Positions 11,756 to 46,560 of a stretch of 64,000 bases of DNA are shown here, piece after piece (position 1 is the stretch's first letter; the number at the start of each line of letters is the position of its first letter). The stretch is from an uncultured Gemmatimonadales bacterium (GTDB taxonomy: Bacteria; Gemmatimonadota; Gemmatimonadetes; Gemmatimonadales; GWC2-71-9): positions 477,331 to 541,330 of the forward strand of contig CAVVHO010000004.1 in assembly GCA_963748035.1 (NCBI GenBank). Direction: 5' to 3'. Under the pieces are notes generated by a model. That model made no database searches. It was not told the DNA's origin and worked only from the letters and a program-made list of their open reading frames with translations. A program made the translations under genes and the position numbers.

Positions 11756-11761
11756 CGGGCC

Positions 11762-12188: not shown

Positions 12189-12292
12189 ATTGCTTCAAGC
12201 AGTTAGGAGTGAGGAAGCCTGTCGTTCTGAGAGAGAAGTGACCGTAGCCACCCCGTCTTGCTCATCCCTCCCACGCGCGCCAAAGGCCCTGT

Positions 12293-12925: not shown

Positions 12926-13153
12926 CCAGGCCGCCGATCGAGCAATTGCGTGGCACGGTCGATCGAGACCCGGGCGTGATGCCGCCTTCGGGTATTGGAT
13001 CAATACGTCGAGGCGGTGCGACGTGGTGAGGATCCCCGTCTCCGCTACCCCGAGTTGGTGACCCACATCCGGCACTGTGCCGCCTGCCGGGAGGACACCG
13101 AGGGGCTGCTGGCCACCCTCGACCTCCTCGACCAGCCCCCCTCGCTGACGTAA
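12922..13153 (+). CDS. small zf-HC2-type anti-sigma factor, copy 1 (frameshifted here)
   Basis: ATG at 12922 overlaps the sigma-factor stop (ATGA). After frame correction it reads DPG.DAAFG.LDQYVEAVRRGEDPRLRYPELVTHIRHCAACREDTEGLLATLDLLDQPPSLT*, with an H-x3-C-x2-C motif. Confidence 0.55.
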
Positions 13154-13246
13154 GAACCCGGCGGCCGCGGCCACTAACTCGTATGGCCGTGTCTCCACCT
13201 CCCAACCCCGTCCCCGGCAGGTACGTGACGGATCGCCCTCTGACCG

Positions 13247-13458
13247 ATGGCTCGGGTCGGGCGTCCCGACCCCGGGTGCGAAGGCGCATTCGAGGTGCTG
13301 GACCAGTATGTCGAGGCCTCCGTCGCAGGGCATGGATGTCGACGCTCCGTTATCCCGACTTCGTCACCCACATCCGCAACTGCGCCGCCTGCCGGGAAGA
13401 CACCGAGGGACTGCTGGCCGCGCTCAACGATCTGGAGCAGCTGCCCCCCGGCAAGTAA
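13247..13458 (+). CDS. small zf-HC2-type anti-sigma factor, copy 2 (tandem paralog, frameshifted here)
   Basis: DPGCEGAFEVLDQYVEASVAG (track ORF 13247..) continues in another frame as LRYPDFVTHIRNCAACREDTEGLLAALNDLEQLPPGK* (track ORF ..13458). It is near-colinear with copy 1. Confidence 0.5.
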
Positions 13459-13560
13459 GATCTTCGCCGCCGCCGCCACTAACGGGAGTAACAGATTCCG
13501 AGGGGCGGCTAGGCCGAAACGCCGGGCGCCCCTCCCGCCATCACTTCCAGGAGGGGTATC

Positions 13561-14603
13561 ATGATCCACCTCGTCACAGTTCCCACCAGTCGCCATGCGT
13601 CATTCTGTCGGTCATCGCCACCGCCACGCTCGCTCTGAACGGCTGCGGCCGCGGTACCCGGCCGTGCCTGTCGACCGCCCCGCGACGTCTCGAGGTGACA
13701 GCTCCACGCAGGATTCGATGCTCCGCCGCCGGCAGCAGCGCCATCAGCTACCGCTCGGCCAAGATCGAGGGGCTCAACGTCTTCTATCGCGAAGCGGGCG
13801 ATCCCCGGAACCCGACGATCGTGCTGCTGGGCGGGTTTCCGTCCTCGTCTCACATGTTCCGCGACCTGATGCCCGTAGCTCGCCGGCAAGTTCCACCTGA
13901 TCGCGCCTGACTACCCGGGTTTCGGCAACACCGACCTCCCCGACCCGGCGGTCTTCGAGTATTCGTTCGATCATCTTTCGTCGATCACCGAGCAGCTGTT
14001 GAGCAGCTTCACGTCACCCGCGCCGGTTTCTACCTGCAGGACTACGGCGGCCCGATCGGCAACCGCATCCTGGCTCGGCACCCGGAGTGGCTGCAGTGGC
14101 AGATCATCCAGAACGGCAACGCCTATGAGGAAGGGTTCACCGGGGTGTGGGACGCCCTGCGGGGCGCCCTCTGGAAGAACCGCAGCCCGGAGACCGAGGC
14201 GCCGCTCGAAGGGTTCCTCGAACTCGCGGGTGTCAAGCAGATCTACCTGACCGGCTCCCCGGACCCGGCCAGGATCAGCCCCGACGCCTGGAACTCGGAT
14301 CTGTTCTTCCTGGCACGGCCCGGGGCCCATCGCGCGAACCTCGATCTGCTGTACGACTACCGCAAGAACGTGCCGCTCTATCCCACGTGGCAGAAGTTCC
14401 TGCGGGACCACCGGCCGCCGACGCTGATCGTCTGGGGCAAGGGCGACGTGTTCTTCACCCAGGCCGGCGCCACGGCGTACCTGCGTGACCTGCCCGATGC
14501 CGAGCTGCATTTCCTGGATGGCGGGCACTTCGTCCTGGAGGATCACGCCGCGGAGGTCGCTGGGCTGATCACCAGCTTCTATGGCAGGAAGGTCGCGAAG
14601 TAG
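13561..14603 (+). CDS. alpha/beta-fold hydrolase (epoxide-hydrolase/haloalkane-dehalogenase-like), lipoprotein signal; several frameshifts here
   Basis: Lipobox LALNGC, then IEGLNVFYREAGDPRNPTIVLLGGFPSSSHMFRDLMP | LAGKFHLIAPDYPGFGNTD ... FYLQDYGGPIGNRILARHPEWL ... TLIVWGKGDVFF...LHFLDGGHFVLEDHAAEVAGLI. These pieces lie across track ORFs 13308..13910 and 14145..14603 and unlisted frames. Confidence 0.75.
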
Positions 14604-14656
14604 CTGGGTCCACGATGGGGCGGCCTTCGGATTCGCGGAGGGCCGCCCCGGGGATG

Positions 14657-15079
14657 TTAGCTGTTCCGCCAACCGGGGGTCGTGACGTCGCGGGGGTCGA
14701 AGTGGTTTTCCTGCTCCACGATCTTCCCGGCGGTGTTAACGACAAACCGGTCGGCGACCCGGAGCGTGGCCCGCGGATTGGTGGTGTAGATGTCGGCTTC
14801 GGTGATGATCGCCGTGAGATCCTCGTTGTAATAATGGGCAATCACCTTTACTCCCCATAGCAGCGGCAGCAATGGCGGCCACCAGGTGGTTCGCAGAGCC
14901 TCCTTACCCATCAAGGGGAAGTGCCGGCCACCAGGGGCGATGGGGGCCCGGAACACGACATTCTGGTCGTAGGGAATTGCCTCGAAGTCCTTCTGATCCA
15001 ACCCGTCGAAAAACGCCTCGGCCGCTCCACGCAGCTGAGCTTTCCGCTCAGCAACCGAGCCTTCCTCTCCCTTGCGCAT
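14657..15079 (-). CDS. NTF2-fold (SnoaL-like) protein
   Basis: Internal ATG at 15079 preceded by GAAGGAGAG. About 140 aa, with AEAFFDGLDQKDFEAIPYDQNVVFRAPI... typical of SnoaL/NTF2-like small proteins. Family assignment is from memory only. Confidence 0.5.
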   Translation of the reverse strand: MRKGEEGSVAERKAQLRGAAEAFFDGLDQKDFEAIPYDQNVVFRAPIAPGGRHFPLMGKEALRTTWWPPLLPLLWGVKVIAHYYNEDLTAIITEADIYTTNPRATLRVADRFVVNTAGKIVEQENHFDPRDVTTPGWRNS

Positions 15080-15228
15080 CAAGCTCTCCTTCTGCGGTAA
15101 GATATGAGCCGAGCCCGCCACCAACACAATAACACGAAGCGGGGCTGACCAGGGCTTCCGGCAGACGGCCTCGACTCCGAGCGACTCCGAATGGAGCAAG
15201 CAGATCGTATTCCTGAGGGAGATGGATC

Positions 15229-15880
15229 ATGCTGCGGATCGCGGGTTTGTGGCGCTACCCGGTCAAGACGCTGGCAGGTGAGCCGTTGGAAGCGACAGAG
15301 TTGACCACTGCCGGTATCCTGGGGGATCGCCTGGTTCACGTCCGCGGCCCCGAAGGGGTACGCACCTCGCGCAGGCATCATCGCCTGCTTGGTCTCCGCG
15401 GAACTCTTGGGGCCGACGGCCAGCCGCTGGTGAACGGCCACCCTTGGCAAGGCACGGAGGCGCTCGCGCTGGTAAAGGAGGCGGCCGGCTCGGACGCCTG
15501 GCTGGCATCCCACGACGGGCTCGAAAGATTCGACATCCTACCGTTGCTGGTCGCGACCGACGGCGCCGTCGCCGCGTTTGGACGGGATATCCGCCGCTTG
15601 CGCCCGAATGTTCTGGTCGGTGGAGTCGGATGGAATGGATGAAGTGAACTGGGAGGGGGCCGAGCTTCATGCCGGTAATGTGGTCGTGCGCCTGGATTCA
15701 CTCCGTGCCCGATGCCCGATGACCACTGTGGATCCGGATACACTGGTCCGGGATCCGGAGGTACTCCGCGACATTGGCCGCCGCTTCGGTGGCCGGCTGG
15801 CGCTCAACGCCGAGGTCCTTCGCCCCGGCCATTGCCGTATTGGGGACATGGTGGATCTCGTGAGGGTCGCCAAAGCGTGA
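15229..15880 (+). CDS. MOSC-domain protein (one frameshift here)
   Basis: MLRIAGLWRYPVKTLAGEPL...IRRLRPNVLVGGV | DGMDEVNWEGAELHAGNVVVRLDSLRARCPMTTVDPDT (track ORFs 15229..15642 and 15578..15880). An extra G lies near 15628. Confidence 0.75.
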
Positions 15881-15980
15881 GAGGGGAACCGATCGTTGGT
15901 TCGGTCCGCGTGGTTCGGTATCTTGCCCAAGGTCCATCACTGCCCCGTGCCTTCTCCGGCCCACGGAATCCCCGCTGCGG

Positions 15981-16560
15981 ATGTCATCCCGACTGCTTCC
16001 GATTGCTCGCGCCATCTGCCGCCACCTGCGTCATGTTGCCATGCGGGCCCGTCGCACCAGCTACGGCCCGGTCGACGCTGCACTTGGAGCCTGGTACGAG
16101 CTCGTCGATGGGTTCAACGGGCTCGAGTTGAGCGAGAACGCCATTCTGCTCGGTTTCGCTGTTGTCATCGGCTTGGCTGGCTCGTTCGGTGTCGTAGGCT
16201 TCTACAAACTGATTGACCTGGCACACACCGCCTTCTTCGAGTGGCCGGAATCGGTGTTGCCCAGTCTCGGGAGACTAGCGTATCGGCCGCTTACCACAGG
16301 CGTCGGCGCGGTGCTCGCCTGGTGGACCATGCGGCGGTTCGTTCAGGGCAAGGATGGGCTCACTGTCCCCGACGTCCAGCTCGCGGTCGTGCGCCGGCAG
16401 GGAGAGATCCCGGCGGGGCCGGCGCTGATGCGCCCCGCAGCGAGCGCCATCACCATCGGCAGTGGTGGATCGGCGGGGAGCGAAGGGCCGGTCGCGGTGT
16501 TCGGCGCGATGGTTGCCTCGCGGCTCGGACGCGCCTTTCGCTTCTCCGGATCTCGGCGGG
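15981..16560 (+). pseudogene. truncated N-terminal fragment of a ClC chloride-channel gene
   Basis: AILLGFAVVIGLAGSFGVVGFYKLIDL...ITIGSGGSAGSEGPVAVFGAMVASRLGRAF. The ClC GSGGSxGxEGP motif is present, but the frame degenerates after about 16555. That is exactly where the convergent intact ClC gene ends. Confidence 0.6.
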
Positions 16561-16568
16561 ACAACCGA

Positions 16569-18022
16569 CTACGAGTCGTCACTGTCTTCCTGTCGTCGCC
16601 CGCGCGAGCGGCCGAGATTGTGTACCCGCTCCGTCAGCGTCCCCTTCCGGATTCGGACTTCGGCACGGTCGACATCGCCGATGGCGCCGCCTAGTGGGAC
16701 GTCCAGGCCGGCCGATTTGGAGAAACCGAGCTTCTGGCTCGCGTACACGCTGCGGTGTCCCACCATGAGAAAGGCGGTGGCCGCGGCAAGCGCGGCATAC
16801 ACCCCCTCCGAGGGCGGAAGCAGTTCCATCGCCATGACGGCCGCTGCTAACGGCGTATTCGCCGCGGCGGCGAGCACAGCCACGAACCCAAACGCCGCGA
16901 GCAGGCTGGGTGGGACCCCAAACACCGTGGCCAGCGCCGCCCCGCTGGTTGTCCCGATAAAGAAGATCGGCGTGACAATGCCGCCGCTGCCTCCTGTCTC
17001 GAGTGTAATCGCGGTCGCTGCGATCTTGAGGAGAAAGACGGCGCCGGTAACCTGAATTGTGCCGGCAAGGACTCCATTGATGGTGTCTGTGCCCAACCCG
17101 GCGTAGCGGTCACCGGCGAAGTGGTACAACACGACGAGGGCTGCGCCACCGGCCGCTGCCAGTAGATACGGGCGATTCTCAAATCGTCGTAGCGCCCGCT
17201 CGAGCCCGCGAAGCGACTCGATCAGCAGGAGAGCGACCAGGCCAAATACCGCCCCGGCCGCGAGACTGATAAGGATCATCCGCACCTGTGGCGTCCCCCG
17301 AAGGGATCCGCCAGGACAGGAAAGGGCGGGTGCACTCCACAGGCGAGGTGCCCCACGATGCCCGCAACGAGGGCGGGAAAGATCACCGTGTAGTCGAGAC
17401 GGCCCAGATAAAGCACCTCGATTCCAAACAACGCGCCCGAGACGGGCGTTCCGAAGACCGCCGCGAAGCCGGCACTGATCCCACAGATGACGAGGCGACG
17501 ACGGTCTTCATCGCCAAGGCGGAGAATGTCCGAGAACAGGCTCGTGAGGGCGGCACCAATCTGCGCCGCAGGGCCCTCCTTGCCGACCGACCCGCCAAAG
17601 GCAAGCGTCAGGACGGTTGCACCGAGCTTGACGGGCGCGATCAGCCAGTCGATGCGTCCTGACCGCTGATGGATGGCCGCGATGACCGCTTCGGTGCCGT
17701 GGCCCCGCGCTTCGGGGGCGAAGGTCCGGATAATCCATACACAGGCTGGGAGCGCTAACGGAAGGATCCAGAACGCCGGGAACGCACCCCTGGTGAGTGT
17801 GTGGACGCCCGCCGTCGAGCTGCCGAGGGCCCAGAGGAATCCCCGAGTCCCGAAGCCGACACAGATACCCGCTCCCGCACCGAGGAGCGCCCACTTGAGT
17901 GTGCTGATGAGAAGGGCGGTATGCTCGGTATACCAGTGGCTCTCGTCTGCCAGGCGTGGCGCATCGAGCTCGTCGGGAACGAACCGGAATCGGGTGAGGA
18001 ACTGCCGCAGACGCGAGGTCAT
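16569..18022 (-). CDS. voltage-gated ClC-type chloride channel (one frameshift here)
   Basis: Track ORFs 17276..18244 (internal ATG at 18022, MTSRLRQF; GHGTEAVIAAI, GGSVGKEGPAAQIGAAL, GISAGFAAVFGTPVSGALFGIEVLY) and 16569..17285 (LETGGSGGIVTPIFFIGTTSGAAL) form one gene. The junction is near 17280. Confidence 0.85.
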
Positions 18023-18384
18023 GGCGCGCGACCACCGGTCTCGGGAAAGCAGGCCCTGACACGGCCACTCGGCAGGTAGCCGATCATGGCACCGCCGATC
18101 GGGACGTCCATCAGGGTCCGCAAGGCTCCTCGCTGGATCGCGTTGGGACAATCCCCCGTCAGATCCACTCCCAGCACCTGGTGGCCAGTCGCTGACACCG
18201 GCGGTGCCGAGTCCACGGCGCCCGCGCCGAAGCGCGCACGCCATGAGAGCACCGTGAGGGCAAGGAAGCCGCGTGGTCGGCTGCTGCGGAGAGAAGTGAC
18301 CATCCGTCCGACCGTCGGGACCGCTTGCCAGAATAATACTTAGATATCAACATAATACCATCACCCTGACCTGAGACCCGCAGC

Positions 18385-18900
18385 ATGACCGCGACTCCAC
18401 GGAGCAGACGCCGGACTGGACGGGCCAAAGCGCAGTCCCTCCCCGATGAGGCCTCTGATATCGTCAACGGCTTGCGACGGATCGTTCGGGCCATCGAGTT
18501 GTATTCACAGGAAGTCTACAAGGGCTTTGGACTGACCGGCCCCCAACTCTGGGCCCTCAAGACCCTCAGCCGCCGCGGCACGCTCGCCACCACGGATCTT
18601 GCAACGGCGCTGGCGGTTCAACCCAGTACCCTCTCGGTGCTTGTGGACCGGCTGGAAAAGCGCGGGCTGGTCAGACGAAATAGGCCCCGGGAGGATCGAC
18701 GATTCGTCGAAATCACCCTCACGCCCCGTGGGACGGCCCTGGCAGCCCGCGCACCTGACCCGGCACAAGGGCGCCTGCTCCACGGCCTGAGGACCCGATC
18801 GCCCCGTGAGCTTCGCACGATCCGCACGTCGGTTGATCAACTGGTCGAAATGATGGAGGCGAGCCAGGTGGAGGCCCGCTTCTTCTTTTCCGACGACTGA
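18385..18900 (+). CDS. MarR-family transcriptional regulator
   Basis: Intact ORF. LTGPQLWALKTLSRRGTLATTDLATALAVQPSTLSVLVDRLEKRGLVRRNRPREDRRFVEITLTPRG is a winged-helix MarR core. It is divergent from the ClC gene across an AT-rich spacer containing TTAGATATCAA. Confidence 0.85.
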   Translation: MTATPRSRRRTGRAKAQSLPDEASDIVNGLRRIVRAIELYSQEVYKGFGLTGPQLWALKTLSRRGTLATTDLATALAVQPSTLSVLVDRLEKRGLVRRNRPREDRRFVEITLTPRGTALAARAPDPAQGRLLHGLRTRSPRELRTIRTSVDQLVEMMEASQVEARFFFSDD

Positions 18901-18943
18901 CCTTGTCAGGTCAGTCAGCCAACAACCAATTGAGGACCACCCC

Positions 18944-19381
18944 ATGCAAGTCGGAAGGCAACCGCAAGATGCGACGATCGGCATTTCCTTCGGAACAGCG
19001 TTCATCACTTGGCTTCCCGTCGCTCTGGGGATCATGCTGGGGACGATACTGCGCCTCGCCGTCTTTCTTCTCAACGGTAGCCAGGCCTTAGCCGCCGCGG
19101 GCAGTATTGCAGGGGCCGCCCTCGGCGCAGTGCTGGCCGTCTCATGGCTGCAGCGGTCGGAGGAGAGTTCGTCCTGGTGGGGCGTGCTGAAGCTCATCGC
19201 AACCTGGGTCGTGCTCAGCGCGGCGTTCCGGGCGGCGTGGCTCGGATTCGTGATCGGTAGTGGATGGAGCGGTGTCACAGGGGACTATGCACTCGAGGAT
19301 GGGCAACCGTGGCCGATCGTTCTCGGCCTCATTGCGGTGGCCCCACTCGCCTTGAGGTGGAGCGGGCGCAGGGGCGACTAG
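18944..19381 (+). CDS. hypothetical integral membrane protein
   Basis: Intact 145-aa ORF with four hydrophobic segments. No motif recognised. Confidence 0.5.
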   Translation: MQVGRQPQDATIGISFGTAFITWLPVALGIMLGTILRLAVFLLNGSQALAAAGSIAGAALGAVLAVSWLQRSEESSSWWGVLKLIATWVVLSAAFRAAWLGFVIGSGWSGVTGDYALEDGQPWPIVLGLIAVAPLALRWSGRRGD

Positions 19382-19410
19382 TCAATTGGCCATGCCCCAG
19401 AGTCGCGGAC

Positions 19411-19507
19411 GAGGAGTGAGGAGTGAGGAGTGAGGAGTAAGGAGTGAGGAGGGACTACCATCACGGTGAGTTCCTCCTCACTCCTCACTCCTTACTCCTC
19501 ACTTCTC
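19411..19507. repeat. octamer-array hairpin (GAGGAGTG)n / (CTCCTCAC)n between convergent genes; possible bidirectional terminator
   Basis: Left arm at 19411-19452 and right arm at 19473-19507 are reverse complements. The right arm abuts the stop of the minus-strand gene at 19508. Confidence 0.85.
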
Positions 19508-20182
19508 TTACGCCGCCGACTGACCCTTCTTGCCGCCCTCAACCAGCTTCGGCTTCGGATAGGGGAAGTTGCGGGCCGACATCCAGGCCGCGAACTCACG
19601 CGGCTGATCGGCGAACAGCGACCGGAAGATGCCATCGAACCGCTTGAGCAGCGCCATCACCTGTCTCGCCAGCGGCCGCAACTCCGCCCGGGCGCCCACG
19701 TGGAGCTGATGATTGTTGTGGACAATGATTTCTGCGGCGGCGAACTCCTCGATGGTCCGACCCATCCCAGCCACGAAGTCCTCCGGCATCTTGTCGCCGA
19801 TGAACACCGCCTTGTGCTCCTCGGCCAGGGTCATGACGGCGTGGGTCGCCCCGATATAGGCGGTCCGGTTACTGCCCTTCTTGGGGGCGCGAAACCGGCG
19901 CGCAATGGCCGGATCCAGCGCGGCATTACCGCGGGCGATCGCCGCGATGGGCAGCAGATACCGCCCATGCAGCACATCCAGCAACCGGGCCTTGTCCAGA
20001 TTGGCGGCGGCGGCCTCACGGTCTCCGGTCTCGCAGTCCGTGAGCACTACCCCGATCCGGGCCACTATCCCGCGCAGCTCATTGACCAGGGTGAGATGGC
20101 TCCCAATCAAGGCGATGTGCAGGTCGAGGAAGTCGAGCGACGATTTCCCCACTTCATAGGTATTGCTGATGCGGCCATTCAT
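19508..20182 (-). CDS. hypothetical protein (224 aa)
   Basis: Internal ATG at 20182 lies 7 nt after GGAAGGAG (MNGRISNTYEVGK...). The track ORF extends to 20305. No family recognised. Confidence 0.55.
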   Translation of the reverse strand: MNGRISNTYEVGKSSLDFLDLHIALIGSHLTLVNELRGIVARIGVVLTDCETGDREAAAANLDKARLLDVLHGRYLLPIAAIARGNAALDPAIARRFRAPKKGSNRTAYIGATHAVMTLAEEHKAVFIGDKMPEDFVAGMGRTIEEFAAAEIIVHNNHQLHVGARAELRPLARQVMALLKRFDGIFRSLFADQPREFAAWMSARNFPYPKPKLVEGGKKGQSAA

Positions 20183-20296
20183 ACGTAACTCCTTCCTGCC
20201 TTGGATCCCGGGCGCCGAACGGGGCGGTGCCGGTGAACTGCGAAGGGTTGGCCAGTCGGAGAATACCCCGTCCATTCCGCCGGCGAGGGCCCTTAT

Positions 20297-20312
20297 TGCC
20301 AGCATCGTGCCA
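20297..20312 (-). promoter_or_regulatory. candidate sigma-54 (-24/-12) promoter
   Basis: The reverse strand reads TGGCACGATGCTGGCA against consensus TGGCACG-N4-TTGCW, with correct GG-N10-GC spacing. It lies about 115 nt upstream of the ATG at 20182. Confidence 0.4.
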
Positions 20313-20642
20313 AAGGCCAGGCGCGGTCGATGAACGGACGCCGGTTGGTTCTTGCACGAGTTTCCAAATAATTCTCTGGCAAATAGTTAGGCGACTGTAC
20401 AACAACCACGGCGAGCTCGGTCTATTGCCCGCGACGGCTCCGGTGTCGGGCACCGATTTGTCCTCCAGCGAGGACAGTGAACCCTCCGAACGAGGACACT
20501 GACCCCGGCAGGGTGGCGGCGGGAGCGACGCCAATGACGCCGGTCGGCCGCGCAATCCGGTCGCCGGCGCTGCCAGCGTATCCCGCGCGTCGCGCAGGCC
20601 AGGCAGGTCATCGTGCAGGACGCTCAGACGGATCGAACGGCG

Positions 20643-20890
20643 TGGCAGGCGAGAAAAACGGGGAGGCCGGCGACAGTAACGGGAAGGCGGATGACAGTAA
20701 CAGGACAGCCAGAGCGACCTTCCGGGCAGGCGGACGAGAAAAACGGGCCGGCGGACGACGCAAACGGGGTGGCAGACGAAGCAAACGGGCCGGCGGACGA
20801 CGCAAACGGGGTGGCAGACGAAGCAAACGGGGTGGCAGACGAAGCAAACGGGCCGGCGGACGAAGTAAACGGGGTGGCTGACGACTCGGT
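20643..20890. repeat. 21-bp minisatellite (about 7 clean plus 4 degenerate units)
   Basis: Units alternate CCGGCGGACGACGCAAACGGG and GTGGCAGACGAAGCAAACGGG, contiguous with no spacers. The period is a multiple of 3, which generates the heptad ORFs seen on both strands in the track. Confidence 0.9.
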
Positions 20891-21045
20891 CAGACGGTCA
20901 GACGGTCCGACGGTCCGGCGGTCAAGGTTCGAGGTGCGGGTGACCCGTGACCCTGACTCATGACCCACGACTCATGACCCACGACCCATGACCCATGACC
21001 CATGACTCACGACCCCCCGGTGTCACTTCAGTGACATCAGCCGAG
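20889..21045. repeat. modular intergenic mosaic element (copy 2, short)
   Basis: (GACGGTCM)n at 20889-20920, (CATGACCC/CACGACYC)n at 20940-21014, and palindrome GGTGTCACTTCAGTGACATC at 21019-21038. Confidence 0.85.
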
Positions 21046-21081
21046 CCGCGGCTTTAGCCGCGAGCTCGAGAGTGTGGCTGG

Positions 21082-21909
21082 TCAGCCCACAACGGCCTTG
21101 GCGGCATCCTGTAGCTCATCGAGCGGGGTCCAGTACGGCTTGGGCTCGGGCCACTGAAATGGGCCACCCGCCAAACGATGCCGGAAGAAGCCAAGCGCGA
21201 GCCCGTGGAGCCGGCGGACCATGTCCGCATCGTCCGTGTGGAATGTGAGGTCCCGCAGGGTGATAAACCGCTTCACGGCCGCCGGGTTGATGTTGGCCTC
21301 GCGGCTCAGCAACCATTGCATGCAGACGGCGTATGCCTCGCTCTTGTCTCTGACTGTCCAAGGGCCGTGGTTGGGAACGAGGCCGCCGCAGGCGATGGCG
21401 GTGCTGAGGACGTCGGCCGAAAGCGCAGGGGCGCAGTCAGAAATGCGCCACTGGCCGGTCGCCTCGACGGTACCGCGGTACCGGTGGTTTCCGAACACGG
21501 TATTGGTGTCTGCCTTGGCGTCAGAGTCCCGTTTGACAATGCCCAGGTTGGCAGAGGCGAGTTCCACCGTCATCCCGGGCTGGGCGAGGGACGCCACTCC
21601 TGTTGCGAGCGGAAAGAGAGCAAAGGTGCTGGGTGCAATCCCATCGCCGGGAACCCCGACGAGGAGTCCGCCGGCCTCCGAGGGGGCAACATAAACGCCG
21701 GTGATTTTGGGTAGAAGCGACTTCTTCAGGGTAGTGCCGGGAGCGGTCAGCCGAAGCGACCAGTGGATGGAGAGATCACAAAACCAGGGGACGAGGGAGA
21801 GGCCGGCGAGTGCGTCGAGTGGTACAACGAGGGGACCGTCGGCAAGCGGCGTCAGTGGCACGGCGTCCATGACTTCGAAGACCCGTGCGGCGATCTCGGT
21901 CTTCTTCAT
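21082..21909 (-). CDS. hypothetical protein (275 aa)
   Basis: Intact ORF MKKTEIAARVFEVMD... with plausible composition. No motif recognised. Confidence 0.5.
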   Translation of the reverse strand: MKKTEIAARVFEVMDAVPLTPLADGPLVVPLDALAGLSLVPWFCDLSIHWSLRLTAPGTTLKKSLLPKITGVYVAPSEAGGLLVGVPGDGIAPSTFALFPLATGVASLAQPGMTVELASANLGIVKRDSDAKADTNTVFGNHRYRGTVEATGQWRISDCAPALSADVLSTAIACGGLVPNHGPWTVRDKSEAYAVCMQWLLSREANINPAAVKRFITLRDLTFHTDDADMVRRLHGLALGFFRHRLAGGPFQWPEPKPYWTPLDELQDAAKAVVG

Positions 21910-22048
21910 GTAGCGGGCCCTTGAGTAAGGAAGCCGGCTAACGTCCCCGCAAACGCCTCGGCTTTCGCACCCCAGAGGAGTGCTATGAACCGTAACCCAA
22001 ACTGTTGCACTTCAAACTTGAATTCTCAGTGAACCAACCGTGTCAGTG

Positions 22049-22459
22049 TCACGCCCAGTTGCCGAGAATGGCCCCCATCGCGGTGAGATAGACGAGCTGA
22101 TACCCGGCATCGATGAGGAAGGCGGCGAGCGGCTTGTCGGAGTAGAGATTAGCGGTGAATCCAATGGGCAACGCGAAGCCCACCCACGCGTGAAATCCCC
22201 AACCGGCACCGGCGCTCAGTGTAGTAGCGCCGAGCCGACTTAGAAAGAGATGAAGGATGTACGCAACGAGGATGAATGCGATGAAGGAGCCAAGATAGGC
22301 CTTCGCCGCATTCGCTTGCATCGCTGCCACCCTCTCTGGCGAATAGCCATTGGTGCGTACCCATGCCTTGGCGAAAAGGAGCGGCGAGTACCACAAGGCG
22401 CCGAGAAGCCAAGCGACGATGGCGGCAGCCAGGATGATGGGCCAGTGGCCAAACGACAT
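22049..22459 (-). CDS. DUF1761-family membrane protein
   Basis: Intact 136-aa ORF with four hydrophobic segments. LLGALWYSPLLFAKAWV matches my memory of DUF1761. Confidence 0.6.
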   Translation of the reverse strand: MSFGHWPIILAAAIVAWLLGALWYSPLLFAKAWVRTNGYSPERVAAMQANAAKAYLGSFIAFILVAYILHLFLSRLGATTLSAGAGWGFHAWVGFALPIGFTANLYSDKPLAAFLIDAGYQLVYLTAMGAILGNWA

Positions 22460-22502
22460 AAGAGGCTCAGGGATATGGTTGGCGGTATGAGGACGAGTAG
22501 CA

Positions 22503-22600
22503 ACCTAACATCCTGCGCTTGAGCTGCAACGCGCGGCTCGTGATGGTCGTCCTAAACTAAGCGTTGGGCCGCGCGTTGGCAGCTCAAGCGCCGGTTAGCC
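22503..22600 (-). repeat. attC-like site (98 bp) downstream of the DoxX cassette ORF
   Basis: The plus strand reads ACCTAAC...GTTAGCC. Arms GCGCTTGAGCTGC/GCAGCTCAAGCGC (13 bp) and AACGCGCGGC/GCCGCGCGTT (10 bp) pair perfectly. One bulged G on the plus strand lies in the arm next to DoxX. Confidence 0.7.
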
Positions 22601-22646
22601 AGCGTTGGTGTCGCAGCCAGTAAGGGCCTCTCGGTGCGCGCTCCGT

Positions 22647-23027
22647 CTAGGTGTGGCGTTGGAGGGCCAGGGTGGCGACGGACCCAGCCAAAACCAGCAG
22701 GGCCATGATGAAGAGGCTCGGATCGCCACCGTAGGTGATACCGATTTTGAAGACGTGGGTTGCGAGGGCCCCGGTCATGAGCCCGACGCCGAGGAGAGCG
22801 CCGAACCGTGTGCTACGGGGCCAGAGGAGGAGGCCCGCCGTAACCAACTCGACCATTCCAAGGAGGACCCTGCCCCAAGGCTCAACCCCGAGCAGAGTGA
22901 AGAGGGCCACGGCGTCCGCCGCCCCCGTCAGCTTTGTGAAACTGGCCATTGAGAGGATCGCGGCTGGCACGACTCGCGCGATCCAGATGAGGGCGACACG
23001 GCTCTTGGAGTCAGTTTGAGCTGTCAT
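22647..23027 (-). CDS. DoxX-family membrane protein
   Basis: Intact 126-aa ORF. ...AAILSMASFTKLTGAADAVALFTLLGVEPWGRVLLGMVELVTAGLLLWPRS...GALATHV has a DoxX-like topology and motif. Confidence 0.7.
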   Translation of the reverse strand: MTAQTDSKSRVALIWIARVVPAAILSMASFTKLTGAADAVALFTLLGVEPWGRVLLGMVELVTAGLLLWPRSTRFGALLGVGLMTGALATHVFKIGITYGGDPSLFIMALLVLAGSVATLALQRHT

Positions 23028-23158
23028 GGCTGCTTGGAGAAAGAGGTAACAGTCAACGATGCAGGGAGGTAACAGTCAACGATGCAGGCAGGTCTGTGGA
23101 TCTCCGACACCCTGCGCTGGAGCGACGACCGGTGTAGGGCGCCGAGTCGTGAAACGCT

Positions 23159-23234
23159 GGCTAACGTACGATTGGACCTGCCTCAAATGTACCGCCAAGA
23201 CAACCTATTACCATCTCACTGCGACTTGTCAGAC
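23159..23234 (-). repeat. short attC-like site (degenerate)
   Basis: The minus strand reads GTCTGAC...GTTAGCC. Its central 45 bp (GGACCTGCCTCAAATGTACCGCCAAGACAA...) recurs at 28410-28455. Arm pairing is only partial. Confidence 0.4.
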
Positions 23235-23745
23235 GGTCAGAGGGGCGGACGGTCCGAGGGTCAAGGTTCTGTCATTGCGGCAGCGCTTGCCCCGAGCGAG
23301 CGAGGGCACGCGCCGAAGCAATCTTTGCTCGGGAGCCCATTGCGCCCCCGATCTCCAACGTACCGTCGTAGGGGCGACCCAACGGGTCGCCCGTTTCAAC
23401 GATAAGCAACGGTGGTTGTGGCGACCCGCGCCAACCCATCTTGGCTGGGTAAACTTCTCACCACGGAAACACGGAAATCACGGAAACAACCACGGAACAG
23501 TTCCGTGCACTCTCCGTGCCTTCCGTGTTTCCGTGGTGAATGGTTGATGTGCTGGCGCGCCGGCACGTCGCTAAAGCGACCGCGAGAGGACGGTCCGACG
23601 GTCCGACGGTCCGACGGTCCGACGGTCAAGGTTCGAGGGGCGCAGGTGACCCACGACCCACGACTCATGACCCACGACCCATGACCCACGACCCGCGACT
23701 ACGACCCCCCGGTGTCACTTCAGTGACATCAGCCCTGCCGGCGGA
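23228..23745. repeat. modular intergenic mosaic element (copy 3), lying between the monooxygenase stop and its attC-like site
   Basis: Module order:
- (GACGGTC)n (23228-23258)
- CTGTCATTGCGG..CGAAGCAATC (23269-23323)
- REP1 CGTAGGGGCGACCCAACGGGTCGCCC (23367-23392)
- long CACCACGGAAACACGG hairpin (23459-23541)
- (GACGGTCC)n (23589-23628)
- (CATGACCC)n (23646-23706)
- palindrome (23711-23730). Confidence 0.85.
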
Positions 23746-24959
23746 CTAGACGGTCAGTACAACCGAGGTAACCCCGTGCTGGAACGCCTCCAGCCGCTTG
23801 CCCATCATCCGCTTGATGAGTCCGGTCTGGACGAGCAGAGGCAAGAGGCGCATCGCCCAGCGGCTGAGCATGGTTGGCTGGAGGAACAGGCGGGCTTGCC
23901 GATCCTGGTGTTCCTGGATGGCCGCGATCTCCGGGAGGCGTTCTGCGGCAACCCGTTGAGCGGCTATGTCCAGAGATGGAAGGCTGCCCCCACCCAACAG
24001 AGCCGGACAGAGGTGATTCGCCGCGACGATCGCGTCGCGCAGCGCCAGGTTGAGCCCTTGCCCGCCAATGGGAGACATCGGGTGCGCGGCATCGCCGAGC
24101 AGCAACTGCCCGGGTGCAGTCCACGAATCCAGGCGGCCAACCATCACATCGAGGAGTACAGTCTTCCGGAGGGCGTGGTAGTGGTCGCGAACGTGCGCGG
24201 CGAGGTCGGGGGACAGCCGGTCGATCAGTTGATCGACCCAATGCTCCGGATCGACGCGGCGCAGCTCGGGCAAGCTGCCCTTCGCGATGGTGAAGCCGGT
24301 CTGAAGGTCGCCGTCGCTCGCGGGGATGCCGCCGCTCAGAAACCCCGCGCCGAGTTCGATGCGGGCGGTTGTCGGGTCGGGCCAGAAGGCGGGAAAGGGG
24401 AGTTTGAGCCACACAATGTCGAACACCTGGCGCAAGGCGGTCTCCGGGAAGTGACCCGCCTTGCGGGTCATCGAGTAGCGTCCATCGGTACCGACAATCA
24501 GGTCCGCCCTGAACTCGACCGGACCGCCGGGCGCGTCGGCGCGCACCCCGACGACGCGACCCTGGTCAAACAGGAGGGCCCGGACCGCCGTCCCCATGTG
24601 GAGCTGGAACGTCGGCGAGCGGCCGGCCTGGTCGGTGAGCAGCCGCAGCAGCGCGGGTTGCGCGACGAATCGACCGGCGAAACCGAGCCGGTCGGTTGAG
24701 ACGCGAGCCCGGAGCCGGTGGCCCCAATACAGCTCAATAGCGCGGACGGCGACCTGCGGCAGCCCGGCGACCGCTTCGGCGAGCCCCATTTGCGCGAGGG
24801 CGTCTAGGCCGCTCTGTTGCAGCCCCTCACCCCGAAAGCTGCGGTCGAAGTCGCAGTGCCGCTCCAGCAGGGTAGTTGTGATGCCGCGCCGCGCCAGCAG
24901 GTACGCCAGCGCGGCACCCGCGGGTCCCGCGCCGACGATGAGGACCGAGCCTGGGGCAT
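23746..24959 (-). CDS. FAD-dependent monooxygenase (UbiH/PHBH-type)
   Basis: The in-frame upstream extension of track ORF 23746..24789 reads SVLIVGAGPAGAALAYLLARRGITTTLLER (GxGxxG). Later motifs are LIVGTDGRYS and LLLGDAAHPMSPIGGQGLNLALRDA. The only ATG (24959) is one base out of frame, so there is an N-terminal indel or an unrecognised start. Confidence 0.8.
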
Positions 24960-24993
24960 GAGGGATAGGTGGGGTGAGGGGAGAAGGGCTGCG

Positions 24994-25119
24994 GGCTGAC
25001 GCCGCGCTTAAGCGGCAGGGACGCAGCGAGATCGCTTCAGTATGCGGTGAGACGGCTGGTGGTGCCAGTCCTACACCAACCGACGGCCGTGCCCTGTCAA
25101 CTTCATGCGGTTGTCAGAC
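24994..25119 (-). repeat. attC-like site (126 bp, degenerate left arm)
   Basis: The plus strand reads GGCTGAC...GTCAGAC. The right arm and centre (GGTGGTGCCAG.CCTACAC..CCG..GGCCG.GCCCTGTCAACTTCATGCGGTTG) belong to the same family as 25922-26048. The left arm pairs poorly. Confidence 0.5.
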
Positions 25120-25921
25120 GGCAATCACTTAGCCGGAATGCTGAGCTCACCGACAATCGTGCTGACGTGAGGCAGGAGGAGTTCACAAAACCGGCGAGCT
25201 TCTGAGTACAGCTGGGTCATGGAATCTTGTAGATGTTTCAGGGTCACTACCGGCACTAACGCTTGGTGGTGCTCAATATCTCCTGGGACGGCAGCGAGCA
25301 GGTAGTCGACTTCCCTTAGTTCAGGCCCCGCGGGGACAGACTGTAGAGCATCAGCTGGCCGTGAAACACGACGAGTGGAAGCATTACGGCTGCAGAGGGG
25401 TGAGTTGGGGAGGAGAGACGGCTTGTGGTTGCACGCGCCTTATCCAGGCTGCGCACCGCGGAGCATGCCTGCATCATCGCAGGTATGGCGCAGGCCGGCG
25501 TTGTGAACGGGCGTGGCATCCGCGGCAAGGGCCTGGCGAGCCCAGCCCACTCTTGGCGCGACCTCATGTCGGATGTAAGCGCGGGAAGATGGCATGAACG
25601 TTCCACATTAGCATCGGGCTACTGCCATAGTGCGCCACTGTCTCTGACAGGCAAGTAGCCGTTCTGTCAACTCGCCTCCAGAGTGAGACCCAAGGTATCG
25701 GCTGGACTTGCAGCTCAACAGGAAAGCCTACCGTATGGCCCGCCGGTGGGCAGTAACAGGCAAGAACATTAGTCGCTGGATGGGCAGTTTGTGGTCTGTC
25801 GCTGTAGCGAGCCCCCCACCCGCCCTCGCGCACGTCCAGCGCAGCGTCGAGGGGATAGCCCGTCTATCGAGCCATTCAAGACTGTGGATCCTTGAACGGT
25901 GCCATCCTATAGTGATTGCCG

Positions 25922-26048
25922 GCCTAACGCCCCGCATAAGTTGCAGGGCCGCGGCGCGTTCGCTTCAGTATGGGGGACACCGACAGGTGGTGCCAGCCCC
26001 TACACAACCCGATGGCCGCGCCCTGTCAACTTCATGCGGTTGTTAGAC
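25922..26048 (-). repeat. attC-like site (127 bp)
   Basis: The plus strand reads GCCTAAC GCCCCGCATAAGTTGCAGGGCCGCGGC ... GCCGCGCCCTGTCAACTTCATGCGGT TGTTAGAC. The ends match RYYYAAC and GTTRRRY. The long imperfect stem has two unpaired bases, both in the right arm, and an inner CACC GACA GGTG hairpin. Confidence 0.7.
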
Positions 26049-26530
26049 CACGTAACGACGTGGGTTCACTGAGACGTGGCGTCTGGCATCCGCCGTAAAT
26101 CGATGACCGCTGGTTACGTTACGACTTCAATCGGTCGCCTGAGGGATGAGTGAAGTCACGCCGTTCACGACGTCCGGCTGGCTTATGAGCGCCGGACAAT
26201 CGTGACAGGCAGCTTCGATAGTGGGAATCCCAGTGCGTCGGGTCGTAGTTCGACCTGATTGTGATCCTTGCGACAGTGGTCTGTGCCTCGGCTACCCCAA
26301 GCCAGTGCACGGCCGGGTTGGCATAGACTGGTGGCGCTGAGCGCGCAGTCCACGCCATACGAGCTGTGCCACTGATGCTTGGTCCTGAAGGAGGGAATCG
26401 AGGGCTCCCGGCCAGATGATAGGGTGTACGATCGGCTCAGCGATGCAGCGTGCCGGGGCACTGATACACATAGCGTCATTGACTAGCTGGGCAGCCCGAA
26501 CGAGCGATGGAGTCTACCTCAGGAAAACCT

Positions 26531-26657
26531 GTCTAACGCCCCGCATAAGTTGCAGGGCCGCGGCGCGTTCACTGCAGTATGGGGGGGCACGGCAGGTGGT
26601 GCCAGCCCCTACACAAACCGTTGGCCGCGCCCTGCCAACTTCATGCGGTTGTTAGCT
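26531..26657 (-). repeat. attC-like site (127 bp), about 90 % identical to 25922-26048
   Basis: The plus strand reads GTCTAAC...GTTAGCT. The stop codon of the HEPN ORF (TAA, 26652-26654) lies inside the terminal AGCTAAC on the minus strand. Confidence 0.7.
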
Positions 26658-27288
26658 GGCATCAACCCAAGACTTGGCCAGTCTCTCCGGCGCACTGAGA
26701 AAGGCTGTACAATAGAGCTCAAGGCGTCGCTGTACGGGAGACTGGCGAAACTCGTGACGAAGGAACGCGCCAGGCGATTGCTTATTGCGGGGCAATGAAG
26801 CTACACCTGGAACCCTTACCCTGTAGATGCTGTACGCGGAATCACTAGAATGCGCAATAACATTGCGGATATGAACAGTCGCTGACTAAAGGTTCGGTTG
26901 TAGGGCTTATCCCCACGACTGGGCCGCCCTTCTTCAAGAAGAGCTCAATGAGCGAGCTTCCTTCCTCGCGGGGGTTAACCGGATGTAATCCGCGTCCGGG
27001 TGTCGCAGAATCTTCTCAAGGCGCGATCGCGAAGGAACGCGAGTAGGGGGTCTTCTTGCCAGCGAGGCGGGACCTCCCGCAGACTTCCGCGTACCCGGAT
27101 TCTTCCAGAAAGGCTTCCCACGGTGTTAGGATAGAGAGAAAGCCTGAGGAGTAGACAAACTCCACGTCTGTTACTAGTAGACGGTTAGCCTGAAGTTCAT
27201 CTTCAACACGGTTGCAGGTCTTAAGAACTTTGCGAACATACGCATCGAATGCCGCTTGCTCTCTAGCAAGTGGGCGAAGTCGTGGCAT
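26652..27288 (-). pseudogene. HEPN-domain protein (R-x4-H), at least three frameshifts in this sequence
   Basis: Track ORF 27016..27288 (MPRLRPLAREQAAFDAYVRKVL...FLSILTPWEAFLEES) continues in other frames as SRSRLEKILRHPDADYIRLTP..., then TVHIRNVIAHSSDSAYSIYRVRVPGVASLPRNKQSPGAFLRHEFRQSPVQRRLELYCTAFLSAPERLAKSWVDAS*. RNVIAH is a HEPN-type Rx4H motif. Confidence 0.5.
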
Positions 27289-27315
27289 ATCAAGCGCCCT
27301 TTAAGCCTAATCTCT

Positions 27316-28359
27316 TCAACAAGTAGTCGTGCCTGGTTCGGTGACGGCCGGGTCACTCGTCGCCGTTCTCCATTGCATCCTGAATCTTCTCAGGAGGGTT
27401 CTGCCAGGTAATGTCTGCGCTTGCTTACGCAGCTTGTCGGCCAGTCCTGAGGGCAGGGCCTGCGCTGGACGCTTCTTTAATGCGCTCTGCAGGCCGTACA
27501 TATGATCGTATGAAGTGACCCAGAGAGAGAAAGAAGCAGCAGGACGCTTGAACGCTGAAGTCGGAAGCAAGGGGCAGATCGAAGCTTCGATGGCACCCAT
27601 CACTTTCGTGAACCGATCCTCTAGAATCCGTTCCGATCGCAGCTCATCGTCATAGGTCTTGTAGTATTGCGTGATCTTCGATTGTGTCTTTCCTTTGAGT
27701 CCCTCGATCATGGCGATCAAGAATTCGGAGGTTGCCTCAACCTCGTCCATCCGCGAGATGGAATCGTTGGTAAAGACCTGCCATCCCCTCCATTGGTCCA
27801 AGTATTGGAAGGCAAGTTCATATGACAGCGATGCAAAGGCTCCGTGGAATTCCGAATTGCGGATCTCTTGCTTGTTGAGTGACAAGCCCGTCGAATTCAA
27901 TCGAGCAAAAATACGAAAAACCAGCTCGTCGCCTGCCGAAGCCGGAAGCACGTGCGTGCTGAATTCATAGTCAAGGATGCACTGCTTGTCGTCTGAGGAG
28001 AGCTTCTCAAACGGCTTTCCTGCCAACTCGGCGTTGTGAGTCTTGCGGACGACTACTCCGTCACGAGCTTCGTCGTAGTCGTCGAGGGCCGAGGAATCTA
28101 GATATGAAATCAGAGTGCGAAGCCTCTGTTGGCCGTCGACGACTTCCATCCTGGACTTTAGGGTCTCAGGAGATGTAGTTGCGCAGCAGAAAGCGGGATG
28201 GGATTTCCACGATGAATGCTGTCGATCGGCCGAATCGCGCTGGAGCTTTCCAGGTACGAGGCCGAGGAGGAAAATAGGATTCAGCCCAGGGCTGCACTGC
28301 GCGTGCCACTCAAGGCACAGGCGGCGGTGAAGACGGTTTCGTGACTTGATGGATGCCAT
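27316..28359 (-). CDS. DUF262 (ParB-like nuclease, DGQQR motif) protein; frameshifted near both ends
   Basis: Track ORF with MEVVDGQQRLRTLISYL. N-terminal DUF262 elements appear in other frames (RPRTWK; SSSAIRPIDSIHRGNPIP; FLLRNYIS). The likely true C-terminus, ADITWQNPPEKIQDAMENGDE*, is in a shifted frame ending near 27355. No DUF1524/HNH tail is present. Confidence 0.7.
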   Translation of the reverse strand: MASIKSRNRLHRRLCLEWHAQCSPGLNPIFLLGLVPGKLQRDSADRQHSSWKSHPAFCCATTSPETLKSRMEVVDGQQRLRTLISYLDSSALDDYDEARDGVVVRKTHNAELAGKPFEKLSSDDKQCILDYEFSTHVLPASAGDELVFRIFARLNSTGLSLNKQEIRNSEFHGAFASLSYELAFQYLDQWRGWQVFTNDSISRMDEVEATSEFLIAMIEGLKGKTQSKITQYYKTYDDELRSERILEDRFTKVMGAIEASICPLLPTSAFKRPAASFSLWVTSYDHMYGLQSALKKRPAQALPSGLADKLRKQAQTLPGRTLLRRFRMQWRTATSDPAVTEPGTTTC

Positions 28360-28384
28360 GGGTGCTAAGGGTGGTTGTCAGGTC

Positions 28385-28475
28385 GCCCGGAGCTGATCGC
28401 CCGCATAACTTACAATTGGACCTGCCTCAAATCTACCGCCAAGACAAACTATTACTATCTCCCTGCATACCAAGC
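28385..28475 (-). repeat. attC-like remnant at the right edge of the array
   Basis: The minus strand ends ...GGTCCAATTGTAAGTTATGCGGGC GATCAGC, resembling the L'-R' half of the 127-bp sites. The centre is shared with 23159-23234. No convincing R'' box is present. Confidence 0.3.
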
Positions 28476-28479
28476 GGCC

Positions 28480-29100
28480 TAATCCGACCGACCGACGCGA
28501 GCGAGATTGCGCGGGGAGCGGCAGAACGCGGGGGGAGGACGTGGGGGGGAGAGGAAGGCGGGGTAGCGGACGGGGCGGACGAAGCGGACCAAGCGCCTTG
28601 CGGCCCCGACCTCCAACGTACCGTCGTAGGGGCGACCCAACGGGTCGCCCGTTTCAACGATAAGAAACGGTGGTTTTGGCGACCCGTGCCAACCCGTCTT
28701 GGCTGGGTAAACTTCTCACCACGGAAACACGGAAATCACGGAAACAACCACGGAACAGTTCCGTGCACTCTCCGTGTCTTCCGTGCTTCCGTGGTGAATG
28801 TTTTAGCAGTGAGGAGTGAGGAGTAAGGAGTGAGGAGTAAGGAGTAAGGAGTGAGGAGTGAGGAGTGAGGAGTAGGGAGTAGGGAGTAGGGAGTAACGAG
28901 GGGCCCGAGGGCGCTCCCCATTCTGGCCGAGTGTCCCTTCAGTGACATCAGCCGCGGACGGCGCGGAAATAAAGGGATTGCTTCGTCGGTCGCTGCGCTC
29001 CCTCCTCGCAATGACAGCTGTCCGCCTGTCGCCCCGTCCGCCCCGTCCGCCTGTCCGCCCGTCCGCCCTGTCCGCCCCTTCCGCCCCGCCCCCCGGGAAC
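28480..29100. repeat. modular intergenic mosaic element (copy 4, largest)
   Basis: Module order:
- G-rich GGCGGACG-type array (28515-28590)
- REP1 (28625-28650)
- long CACCACGGAAACACGG hairpin (28717-28799)
- (GAGGAGTR/GGGAGTA)n (28808-28905)
- palindrome variant GTGTCCCTTCAGTGACATC (28931-28949)
- inverted GATTGCTTCG..CTCGCAATGACAG module (28977-29017)
- (CCGTCCGCC)n (29019-29090), complementary to the first array. Confidence 0.85.
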
Positions 29101-29143
29101 CTCCTGCCGCCTCCGGCGTTAAGGCAGGCAGGAGGAAATACCC

Positions 29144-29332
29144 ATGTCGACGACCCGTCAGCCTGAGACCATCCTGATGCACTCGGCCCTTGCCGGCCTG
29201 ACCCTGTTCACGCGGCGGGGGGCAGCCCCCTGGGCGGCCTACGAGATCCTGCCCGAGGGCAGGCTCGGCGACTGTCGGCCCACCGAGGCCGACCCCTCAT
29301 CCCATGCCTGGCGTGGAGCGTCGTCCCGATGA
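29144..29332 (+). CDS. small ORF translationally coupled to the GMC oxidoreductase gene
   Basis: ATG at 29144 lies 8 nt after GGAGGA. The stop TGA overlaps the next ATG (ATGA at 29329-29332). No family recognised, and the tail may be out of frame. Confidence 0.3.
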   Translation: MSTTRQPETILMHSALAGLTLFTRRGAAPWAAYEILPEGRLGDCRPTEADPSSHAWRGASSR

Positions 29333-46502: not shown

Positions 46503-46560
46503 TTCGACGCGAGATCGCTGATTGAATGGGAAGGGGATTTCAGGGGAGGAGTTACGGGTC

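Follow-up and report, generated by a model that had tools for sequence, protein, structure and literature searches.

The window considered here is a stretch of 64,000 nucleotides (nt) from an uncultured Gemmatimonadales bacterium (assembly GCA_963748035.1, contig CAVVHO010000004.1, positions 477,331 to 541,330), and it contains two adjacent minus-strand genes, A and B, carried on an integron-type gene cassette. Gene A belongs to the DUF262/GmrSD_N group of ParB-like proteins and gene B to a family of small helical proteins with probable ties to HEPN. Both reading frames are broken by small insertions and deletions (indels). The two-gene observation nevertheless stands far above chance, with a GmrSD_N match at 2.1e-14, a homologue of A at 2.9e-102 and a homologue of B at 5.8e-64. 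An open reading frame (ORF) at 27316..28359 (minus strand, 347 amino acids (aa)) carries MEVVDGQQRLRTLISYL, and RPRTWKAPAR, AIRPIDSIHRGNPIP and FLLRNYIS are present in the other two frames of gene A. Gene B opens at an ATG at 27288, 1 nt past the corrected-frame stop of gene A (TGA, 27292-27290), and in shifted frames reads TVHIRNVIAHSS...PGAFLRHEFR...LELYCTAFLSAPERL, through to a TAA at 26654-26652. This stop lies within the AGCTAAC box (26657-26651) of a 127-nt attC-like hairpin repeat; a stop codon inside the first attC box is common in integron cassettes. An earlier, sequence-only reading of this DNA had quoted these elements, and all were found on the minus strand at the coordinates it gave. 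FLLRNYIS is the least secure of them, since it is present in a shifted frame but frameshift-aware alignment favours another frame there. The low-GC location that was claimed for the pair is also real, with a G+C content of 0.53-0.59 (~54%) in the module region vs a window mean of 0.657 (~66%).

The broken window ORF of gene A matches Pfam PF03235 (GmrSD_N) with 54.5 bits, above the gathering cut-off of 33.2, and its intact homologue L002 does so at 6.6e-26 (92.1 bits). A protein search returned 632 relatives of gene A, among which the hit at 2.9e-102 is the best intact homologue of the broken ORF. The best intact relatives are 358-360 aa long, are 65-67% identical in the central region and have PF03235 as their sole domain. 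The best 120 of the 632 homologues likewise show PF03235 only, save one without any domain, and Pfam detected DUF1524/HNH neither in A, nor in B, nor among these 120. The DGQQR motif stands in the context MEVVDGQQRL (28152-28123) and is kept in homologues P0002-P0034; in the literature it is the nucleotide-hydrolysis motif of ParB/GmrSD-like proteins. Among the PADLOC models, NsnA of the Menshen system matches the L002 copy of A at 1.4e-38 and the window ORF at 9.6e-24, PD-T4-2_A matches the L002 copy at 1.1e-22 while spanning only about half of the model, and the HEC-05/06 (GmrSD-like) and SspE models give weak matches. The NsnA alignment extends over 263 residues (A 4-266 to model positions 43-294 of 385), with the C-terminal half of gene A aligning past the DUF262 domain to a region described as DNA-binding (PMC12065111). 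NCBIfam gave no match for A or B. Based on the PF03235-only relatives and the PADLOC scores for NsnA and PD-T4-2_A, gene A is predicted to encode a stand-alone ParB-like DUF262 NTPase without a DUF1524/HNH tail. This agrees with the assignment in the sequence-only reading, and the above-threshold GmrSD_N match, the DGQQR motif and the missing DUF1524 all bear it out.

Gene B was traced through its relatives. Reading through its frames recovers a 213-aa homologue at 5.8e-64 (P0121), and in three contigs with relatives of A the next gene encodes a 206-213-aa protein without Pfam annotation that aligns to the second gene of the window across its frames. An invariant RN-IAH-S motif and a PGAFLRH-FR motif are common to 14 close relatives. 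A search of 1.84 billion representatives with a B profile returned 779 at E<=1e-3 and 288 at 1e-10, nearly all of about 200 aa; one apparent relative, the repetitive 1297-aa P0169, was discarded as spurious. Across 73 diverse members of the family the Arg of the Rx4H motif is invariant, and the Asn, Ala, His and following Ser are conserved in >=90%; RNVIAH is the sole match to RN.[IVL][AC]H in the six-frame translation of the window. The only Pfam family that recurs among the 73 members is HEPN_RiboL-PSP (PF18735), found in 14 of them at E<=0.01 (best 1e-6). One member, P0213, reaches 29.2 bits, just over the cut-off of 28.4, and its gene directly follows a 358-aa GmrSD_N gene. The scattered PADLOC matches of the family fall on HEPN-containing models, and an AlphaFold2 (AF2) model of the closest intact relative is almost entirely helical (predicted local distance difference test score, pLDDT, 94.6). 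B is therefore treated here as a putative remote member of the RiboL-PSP branch of HEPN, by transitive profile evidence and the motif and not by a direct match. A further member of the family, P0278 (350 aa), has at its C-terminus a SeqA_C domain (PF03925, 33 bits), the part of SeqA that recognises hemimethylated GATC DNA; this hints that some members of the HEPN family of B may read DNA methylation state directly.

A and B form a strictly linked, translationally coupled pair. In 19/19 loci with a complete B, the gene just upstream on the same strand is A, with spacings that range from a 17-nt overlap to a 25-nt gap; the expectation that homologous pairs would be linked in other genomes is thereby borne out. 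These loci come from metagenome-assembled genomes (MAGs) of Bryobacterales, Acidobacteriota, Geminicoccaceae and Hyphomicrobiales and from several metagenome contigs, and include three distant B members (24-26% identical to P0121) that were looked up separately. Two further loci stand outside this count, one with its upstream end cut off (L019) and one with only a C-terminal fragment of B (L010). Locus scans with the B profile gave 5 loci in genomes and 7 in metagenomes, with the source contig not among them. In every locus the G+C content of the module is below that of its flanks, as expected for horizontally moving genes.

The cassette is delimited by members of a repeat family (Table 1). 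Three hairpin-type repeats of 128-134 nt have CTAAC/GTTAG end boxes, and the third closes the A-B cassette. Its hairpin has z = -4.2 on the plus strand and -2.5 on the gene (minus) strand, and it scores 149 bits with an in-house covariance model, as is expected because the model was built from that copy. The 609-nt cassette that ends in the second repeat starts with TTAGAC, the exact complement of its own attC box GTCTAA. The covariance model found a fourth site between a DoxX-like gene (22647-23027) and a DUF1761 gene (22049-22459), where the start of the DoxX cassette, TTAGCC, is the exact complement of the GGCTAA box. The orphan cassette array is thus longer than the three obvious repeats, and all four sites in the island are co-oriented. 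At the other end of the A-B cassette, TTATGCGGGCGATCAGCT resembles the end of an attC 3' arm followed by the start TCAGCT; this start matches its own AGCTAA box at 5 of 6 positions and lies 12 nt inside the boundary of a composite repeat, u3, so that its reading as the 5' junction is suggestive only. The same attC family follows B in L004, an unrelated short-read contig with the closest homologous pair, in a copy whose loop differs and whose stem shows a compensatory CC/GG to GG/CC change. A different attC-like palindrome follows B in L001, and the G+C-rich palindromes at this position in L011 and L013 are probably attC-like hairpins. The proposal that the pair is carried as one cassette in a low-GC island is supported in that the pair ends in an attC-like site within a low-GC variable island.

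Table 1. Positions of the gene pair, its motifs, the attC-like sites and associated features in the window
Feature	Positions	Strand	Basis
Gene A, DUF262/GmrSD_N (ParB-like NTPase, predicted)	27290..28359	-	Pfam, PADLOC, homologues, frameshift-aware alignment
DGQQR motif of the DUF262 domain	28126..28140	-	read directly from sequence
Gene B, ~213 aa, all-helical RiboL-PSP-like HEPN family (putative)	26652..27288	-	homologues, profile search, AF2 model
RNVIAH (Rx4H motif of gene B)	26850..26867	-	conservation in 73 family members
attC-like site 3, 3' end of A-B cassette, AGCTAAC...GTTAGAC (gene strand)	26527..26662	-	repeat family, hairpin fold
attC-like site 2, GTCTAAC...GTTAGGC, closes 609-nt cassette	25917..26053	-	repeat family, fold, covariance model
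attC-like site 1, degenerate, GTCTGAC...GTCAGCC	24990..25124	-	repeat family, covariance model; folds poorly
attC-like site 4, GGCTAAC...GTTAGGT	22499..22605	-	in-house covariance model only, 50.9 bits, E = 1.7e-11
Putative 5' junction of A-B cassette, TTATGCGGGCGATCAGCT	28388..28405	-	read directly, compared with attC-like sites 2 and 3
Composite ~570-nt non-coding repeat u3, directly upstream of gene A	28406..28959		repeat search
Variable island of 17.4 kb with the cassette cluster	11757..29132		blastn of contig L021 against the window

The combination of a DUF262 gene with a HEPN gene has precedents. PD-T4-2 from E. coli ECOR65, described as 'DUF262, HEPN', protects against T4, and its deletion in native ECOR65 restored T4 plaquing; HHpred assigns its A protein to PF03235 and its B protein, at 97.8%, to PF18735 (Vassallo et al. 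2022, PMC9519451). DUF262 plus HEPN (PF18735) is also given as the PD-T4-2 architecture in PMC10952713, and reviews place the system among the DUF262 systems without DUF1524, with its mechanism unknown. A survey of HEPN from 2013 had already listed a RiboL-PSP-HEPN family in 'operon with ParB' (Anantharaman et al. 2013, PMC3710099). The suggestion in the sequence-only reading that the pair looks uncharacterised was therefore overstated, as DUF262 plus HEPN is the validated architecture of PD-T4-2. The window module is a divergent new member of a known DUF262 + HEPN type and not a new system.

By sequence comparison the module appears to be a distant relative of PD-T4-2 with the same architecture. 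Each has two genes, a DUF262 gene without DUF1524 followed by a small gene of the PF18735 HEPN type (an assignment that is transitive for B here), the sizes are close (1.54 kb vs 1.71 kb here), and the PD-T4-2_A model matches A at 1.1e-22. The differences are that the PD-T4-2_B model matches 0/73 B members, which is why PADLOC does not call the pair as PD-T4-2, that A scores higher on NsnA, and that the hosts are E. coli in one case and soil or sediment Acidobacteriota and Alphaproteobacteria in the other. Additionally, the window copy is bounded by attC-like sites. The 'operon with ParB' of the 2013 survey is the same predicted pairing, with one B member passing the PF18735 threshold, but B of the window and its close relatives fall below that threshold, have an extra conserved C-terminal PGAFLRHEFR, and show no L-PSP fusion. 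The likeness to Menshen (PMC12065111) extends over the ParB-DUF262 domain of NsnA and part of the following region described as DNA-binding; here, however, there is neither an NsnB ABC-ATPase nor an NsnC effector, and the HEPN gene directly follows A. GmrSD, BrxU and SspE have the DUF262 NTPase domain with DGQQR in common with A, whereas the effector here is a separate HEPN protein (a predicted RNase) and not a fused DUF1524 HNH DNase or nickase. Integron cassettes are well established as carriers of defence genes (bioRxiv 10.1101/2024.07.02.601686), and the compact defence-type module bounded by attC sites in an array fits this. The main text of that study does not, however, include DUF262 or PD-T4-2, and the window differs in its host, which is not Vibrio, and in having no integrase nearby (motif scan).

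Considered together, these lines of evidence make it probable that the module is a coupled DUF262 NTPase and HEPN defence pair of the PD-T4-2 kind on an integron cassette, with frame breaks that most likely stem from assembly errors. Unlike the domain identities, the motifs, the strict linkage of A and B and the cassette context, all of which were observed, the mechanism is drawn from other systems. In GmrSD, BrxU and SspE, DUF262 senses modified phage DNA and the hydrolysis of nucleoside triphosphate (NTP) switches on a nuclease, and HEPN effectors are RNases. By analogy with both, A would sense invading, possibly modified, phage DNA and hydrolyse NTP, and its signal would release or activate B. 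B would then cleave RNA (tRNA, rRNA or mRNA), which would stop phage production either directly or by arrest of the infected cell. The roles of sensor and effector, the RNA target and the defence phenotype are thus inferred by analogy.

Frameshift-aware alignment of gene A to P0002 requires 6 shifts of 1-2 nt and yields 221/358 identical residues (62%); one in-frame stop is explained by two further shifts (an excursion around 27350-27370), so that there are about 6-8 indels in all, including those near 28338, 28318, 28268, 28233, 28168 and 27392. Gene B aligns to P0121 with 4 small indels, near 27078, 26956, 26900 and 26880, and 127/213 identical residues (60%). The sequence-only reading had recognised that both frames are broken, but its figure of at least three corrections per gene was an undercount, with A requiring 6 (plus 2) and B 4. 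The 10-12 frame corrections that the module needs are all 1-2-nt indels with zero nonsense substitutions, the identity after correction is within the range between intact homologues, and the family-invariant residues are kept.

Similar breaks occur throughout the window. Aligning the gluconolactonase-like gene SGL to its intact counterpart protein from the related contig L021 takes 2 shifts, and 1-2-nt indels split the genes for a ClC channel, a GMC oxidoreductase, a large Ser/Thr kinase-AAA protein and Dtd; examples of frame breaks are at 9763, 9866, 17285, 29606-30587, 34809, about 50170 and 54-63 kb. A codon-model frame tracker counted 68 same-strand frame switches in the 64 kb, with some patches as dense as the module, and the damage is patchy, leaving unaffected stretches of 3-4.6 kb. 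L021, from a sample also yielding long MAG contigs, has breaks of its own, in genes whose window copies are intact. Three of the frame-switch points in the GMC gene were compared with short-read contigs of related organisms, which differ there from the window by one letter; at 30349 the difference is seen in four of the contigs that cover the site, from three runs. A search for homologues of the GMC oxidoreductase returned only fragments. No public run was found to contain the module, and runs matching other parts of the window (12-15% of words) gave no contig on 26660-28390. Because ordinary genes have the same kind of indels at sites where relatives are intact, indel errors of a draft long-read-type assembly are favoured and probably account for the frame breaks, with true decay being the less probable but still substantial possibility. 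The contig has the look of a long-read assembly that is unpolished or of low coverage, and pseudogene calls in the window consequently need read support.

Several results weigh against the interpretation as a PD-T4-2-like defence pair with frame breaks from assembly errors. B and its closest relatives fall short of the PF18735 cut-off of 28.4 bits, at 14.7-17.7, and the PADLOC PD-T4-2_B model matches none of the 73 members (E<=0.01) and none of 4 close homologues (E<=1). Foldseek comparisons of two B models with the PDB and of one with BFVD returned nothing at E<0.5 (in the PDB nothing at E<0.6), with the HEPN toxins 7bxo_F, 7ae9_C and 8xdj_B at probabilities of 0.15-0.41 only, and sequence and profile searches of the PDB with B gave only noise. 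Since the close relatives are sub-threshold and P0213 is just above the cut-off, the HEPN link of the window protein is transitive. The earlier placement of B in HEPN is supported by the conserved Rx4H motif and the connection of the family to PF18735, but not by the fold searches, which were not significant, nor by the score of the protein itself. No integrase was detected in the 64-kb window with two tyrosine-recombinase motif patterns in a six-frame translation of this indel-rich sequence, and the attC array is therefore, locally, an orphan (CALIN-type) array at best. At ~6-7 indels per kb the module reaches the upper end of the densities seen in the window, and its indels are spread unevenly. 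A has no indel between ~28164 and 27400 (~770 nt), for which P is ~0.001-0.003 under uniform placement, and random error does not obviously predict such an indel-free centre. Two Joint Genome Institute (JGI) metagenome contigs that are assumed to be short-read assemblies, L016 (1-1068) and L017 (551-2223), carry the A-B pair with frame changes in both genes, and genuinely decayed copies of the module may therefore exist. Finally, the defence phenotype of the clade is a prediction by analogy with PD-T4-2.

Some of these observations would also fit a module of the same kind that is truly dead, a pair of decaying pseudogenes in an orphan array without further expression or selection. This explanation is doubtful but has to be taken seriously: at 10-12 in 1.7 kb the disruptions are more closely spaced than in most other parts of the window, they are concentrated in gene B and the N-terminal catalytic part of gene A, where they would abolish function, and frame-broken copies are found in L016 and L017. 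The degenerate state of attC-like site 1 and of the upstream junction points the same way, as do the lack of an integrase in the window by motif scan and of a promoter-like site upstream. Neutral decay that produced ~12 indels would, as a rough expectation, be accompanied by several premature stops, but the disruptions are indels only, without nonsense substitutions, and the family-invariant residues survive frame correction. Moreover, conserved ordinary genes of the window show the same kind of private indels at sites where their relatives are intact, which counts against decay of the pair.

Two other explanations concern the function of the pair and not its state. A toxin-antitoxin-like addiction module, in which a HEPN toxin is neutralised by the DUF262 protein and the pair stabilises the cassette array or the island, would fit the tight operon of two translationally coupled genes. 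Chromosomal integrons often carry toxin-antitoxin cassettes, HEPN is the toxin in HEPN-MNT systems, and such toxins were at the top, though not significantly, in the fold search. Against this, the partner of B is a 358-aa NTPase of a sensor family and not a small antitoxin or an MNT nucleotidyltransferase, and the order of sensor first and effector second is that of PD-T4-2, a phage-defence system. Addiction alone is thus an unlikely account, though addiction and abortive-infection defence are mutually compatible. The highest PADLOC score of A, for NsnA (1.4e-38), together with the weak HEC-05/06 and SspE matches, could be taken to mark a remnant of a larger DUF262 system, either Menshen minus NsnB and NsnC or a split type IV restriction enzyme of the GmrSD type. 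However, B and never an NsnB ABC-ATPase or NsnC-like gene follows A in 19/19 loci, DUF1524/HNH is missing from A, B and the best 120 of 632 A homologues, and a third gene would not fit into the cassette. Both versions were rejected on gene content, and a remnant is accordingly very improbable.

Within the preferred interpretation as a defence pair on an integron cassette, a more specific proposal is that the family is a distinct DUF262 defence subtype, in which an NsnA-like sensor is wired directly to a RiboL-PSP-type HEPN effector without the Menshen ATPase. It would move between phyla as a ~1.9-kb integron cassette, with a trigger and target possibly unlike those of PD-T4-2; this proposal is tentative and more apt to fail than to hold. 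With 779 cluster representatives in the B family, the module extends the DUF262 + HEPN anti-phage class by a divergent branch that is widespread in the environment, and it shows that members of this class can take the form of an integron cassette (in soil Acidobacteria-like genomes). The pair is not called by the current PADLOC models (v2), so that the family could improve the annotation of defence systems. The window copy itself has little value before its reading frames are confirmed.

The surroundings of the pair are those of a variable island. The segment that makes up the island is missing from L021, a contig that is syntenic with the window on either side of it (85-88% nucleotide identity). 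The genes flanking the cassette cluster are the GMC oxidoreductase and ordinary island genes, and the other genes of the island encode a FAD monooxygenase, DoxX, DUF1761, MarR, SnoaL and a hydrolase; this makeup is not that of a classical defence island. A search of 26400-29200 gave no sigma-70-like promoter, in keeping with a cassette. Two neighbouring cassettes, at 25125-25916 (~790 nt) and 26054-26526 (~470 nt), hold no ORF with a recognisable family and are possibly frame-damaged; a 98-aa ORF at 26183-26479 had no Pfam match.

Several non-coding repeats were also identified in the window. Related composite copies of u3 are located at 23162-23743 and 20600-21048, with pieces also at 11976-12215, and the left edge of the island bears a piece of the composite hairpin repeat. 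Common to the three composite copies are both ends and a 212-nt core (95% identical) with two strong hairpins. Between these parts they have variable tandem arrays of 7-8-nt units (GAGGAGT, GACCCAC and CGGTCCGA), with an extra 21-nt tandem unit at 20617-20911. Rfam gave no match on the whole window, and the repeats are therefore not a known RNA family or group II intron. For the copies at 23162-23743 and 28406-28959 the gene-strand homology ends exactly at GTTA. One composite copy is followed by the six bases TTAGCC, exactly complementary to the opening box of the next attC, and attC-like site 1 is followed by TCAGCC, the complement of the GGCTGA with which that composite copy starts. Because of these exact box complements at their edges, the ends of the composite repeats behave like attC ends. 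A reading of the ~570-nt repeats as giant attC sites is nonetheless doubtful, as the end boxes fit but the ends are unpaired in minimum-free-energy folds. A G+C-rich hairpin, GGGGCGACCCAACGGGTCGCCCC, is present in six copies at 45698-47062, a gene-poor stretch, and also in the core of the composite repeat, and it behaves like a dispersed element of the repetitive extragenic palindromic (REP) type.

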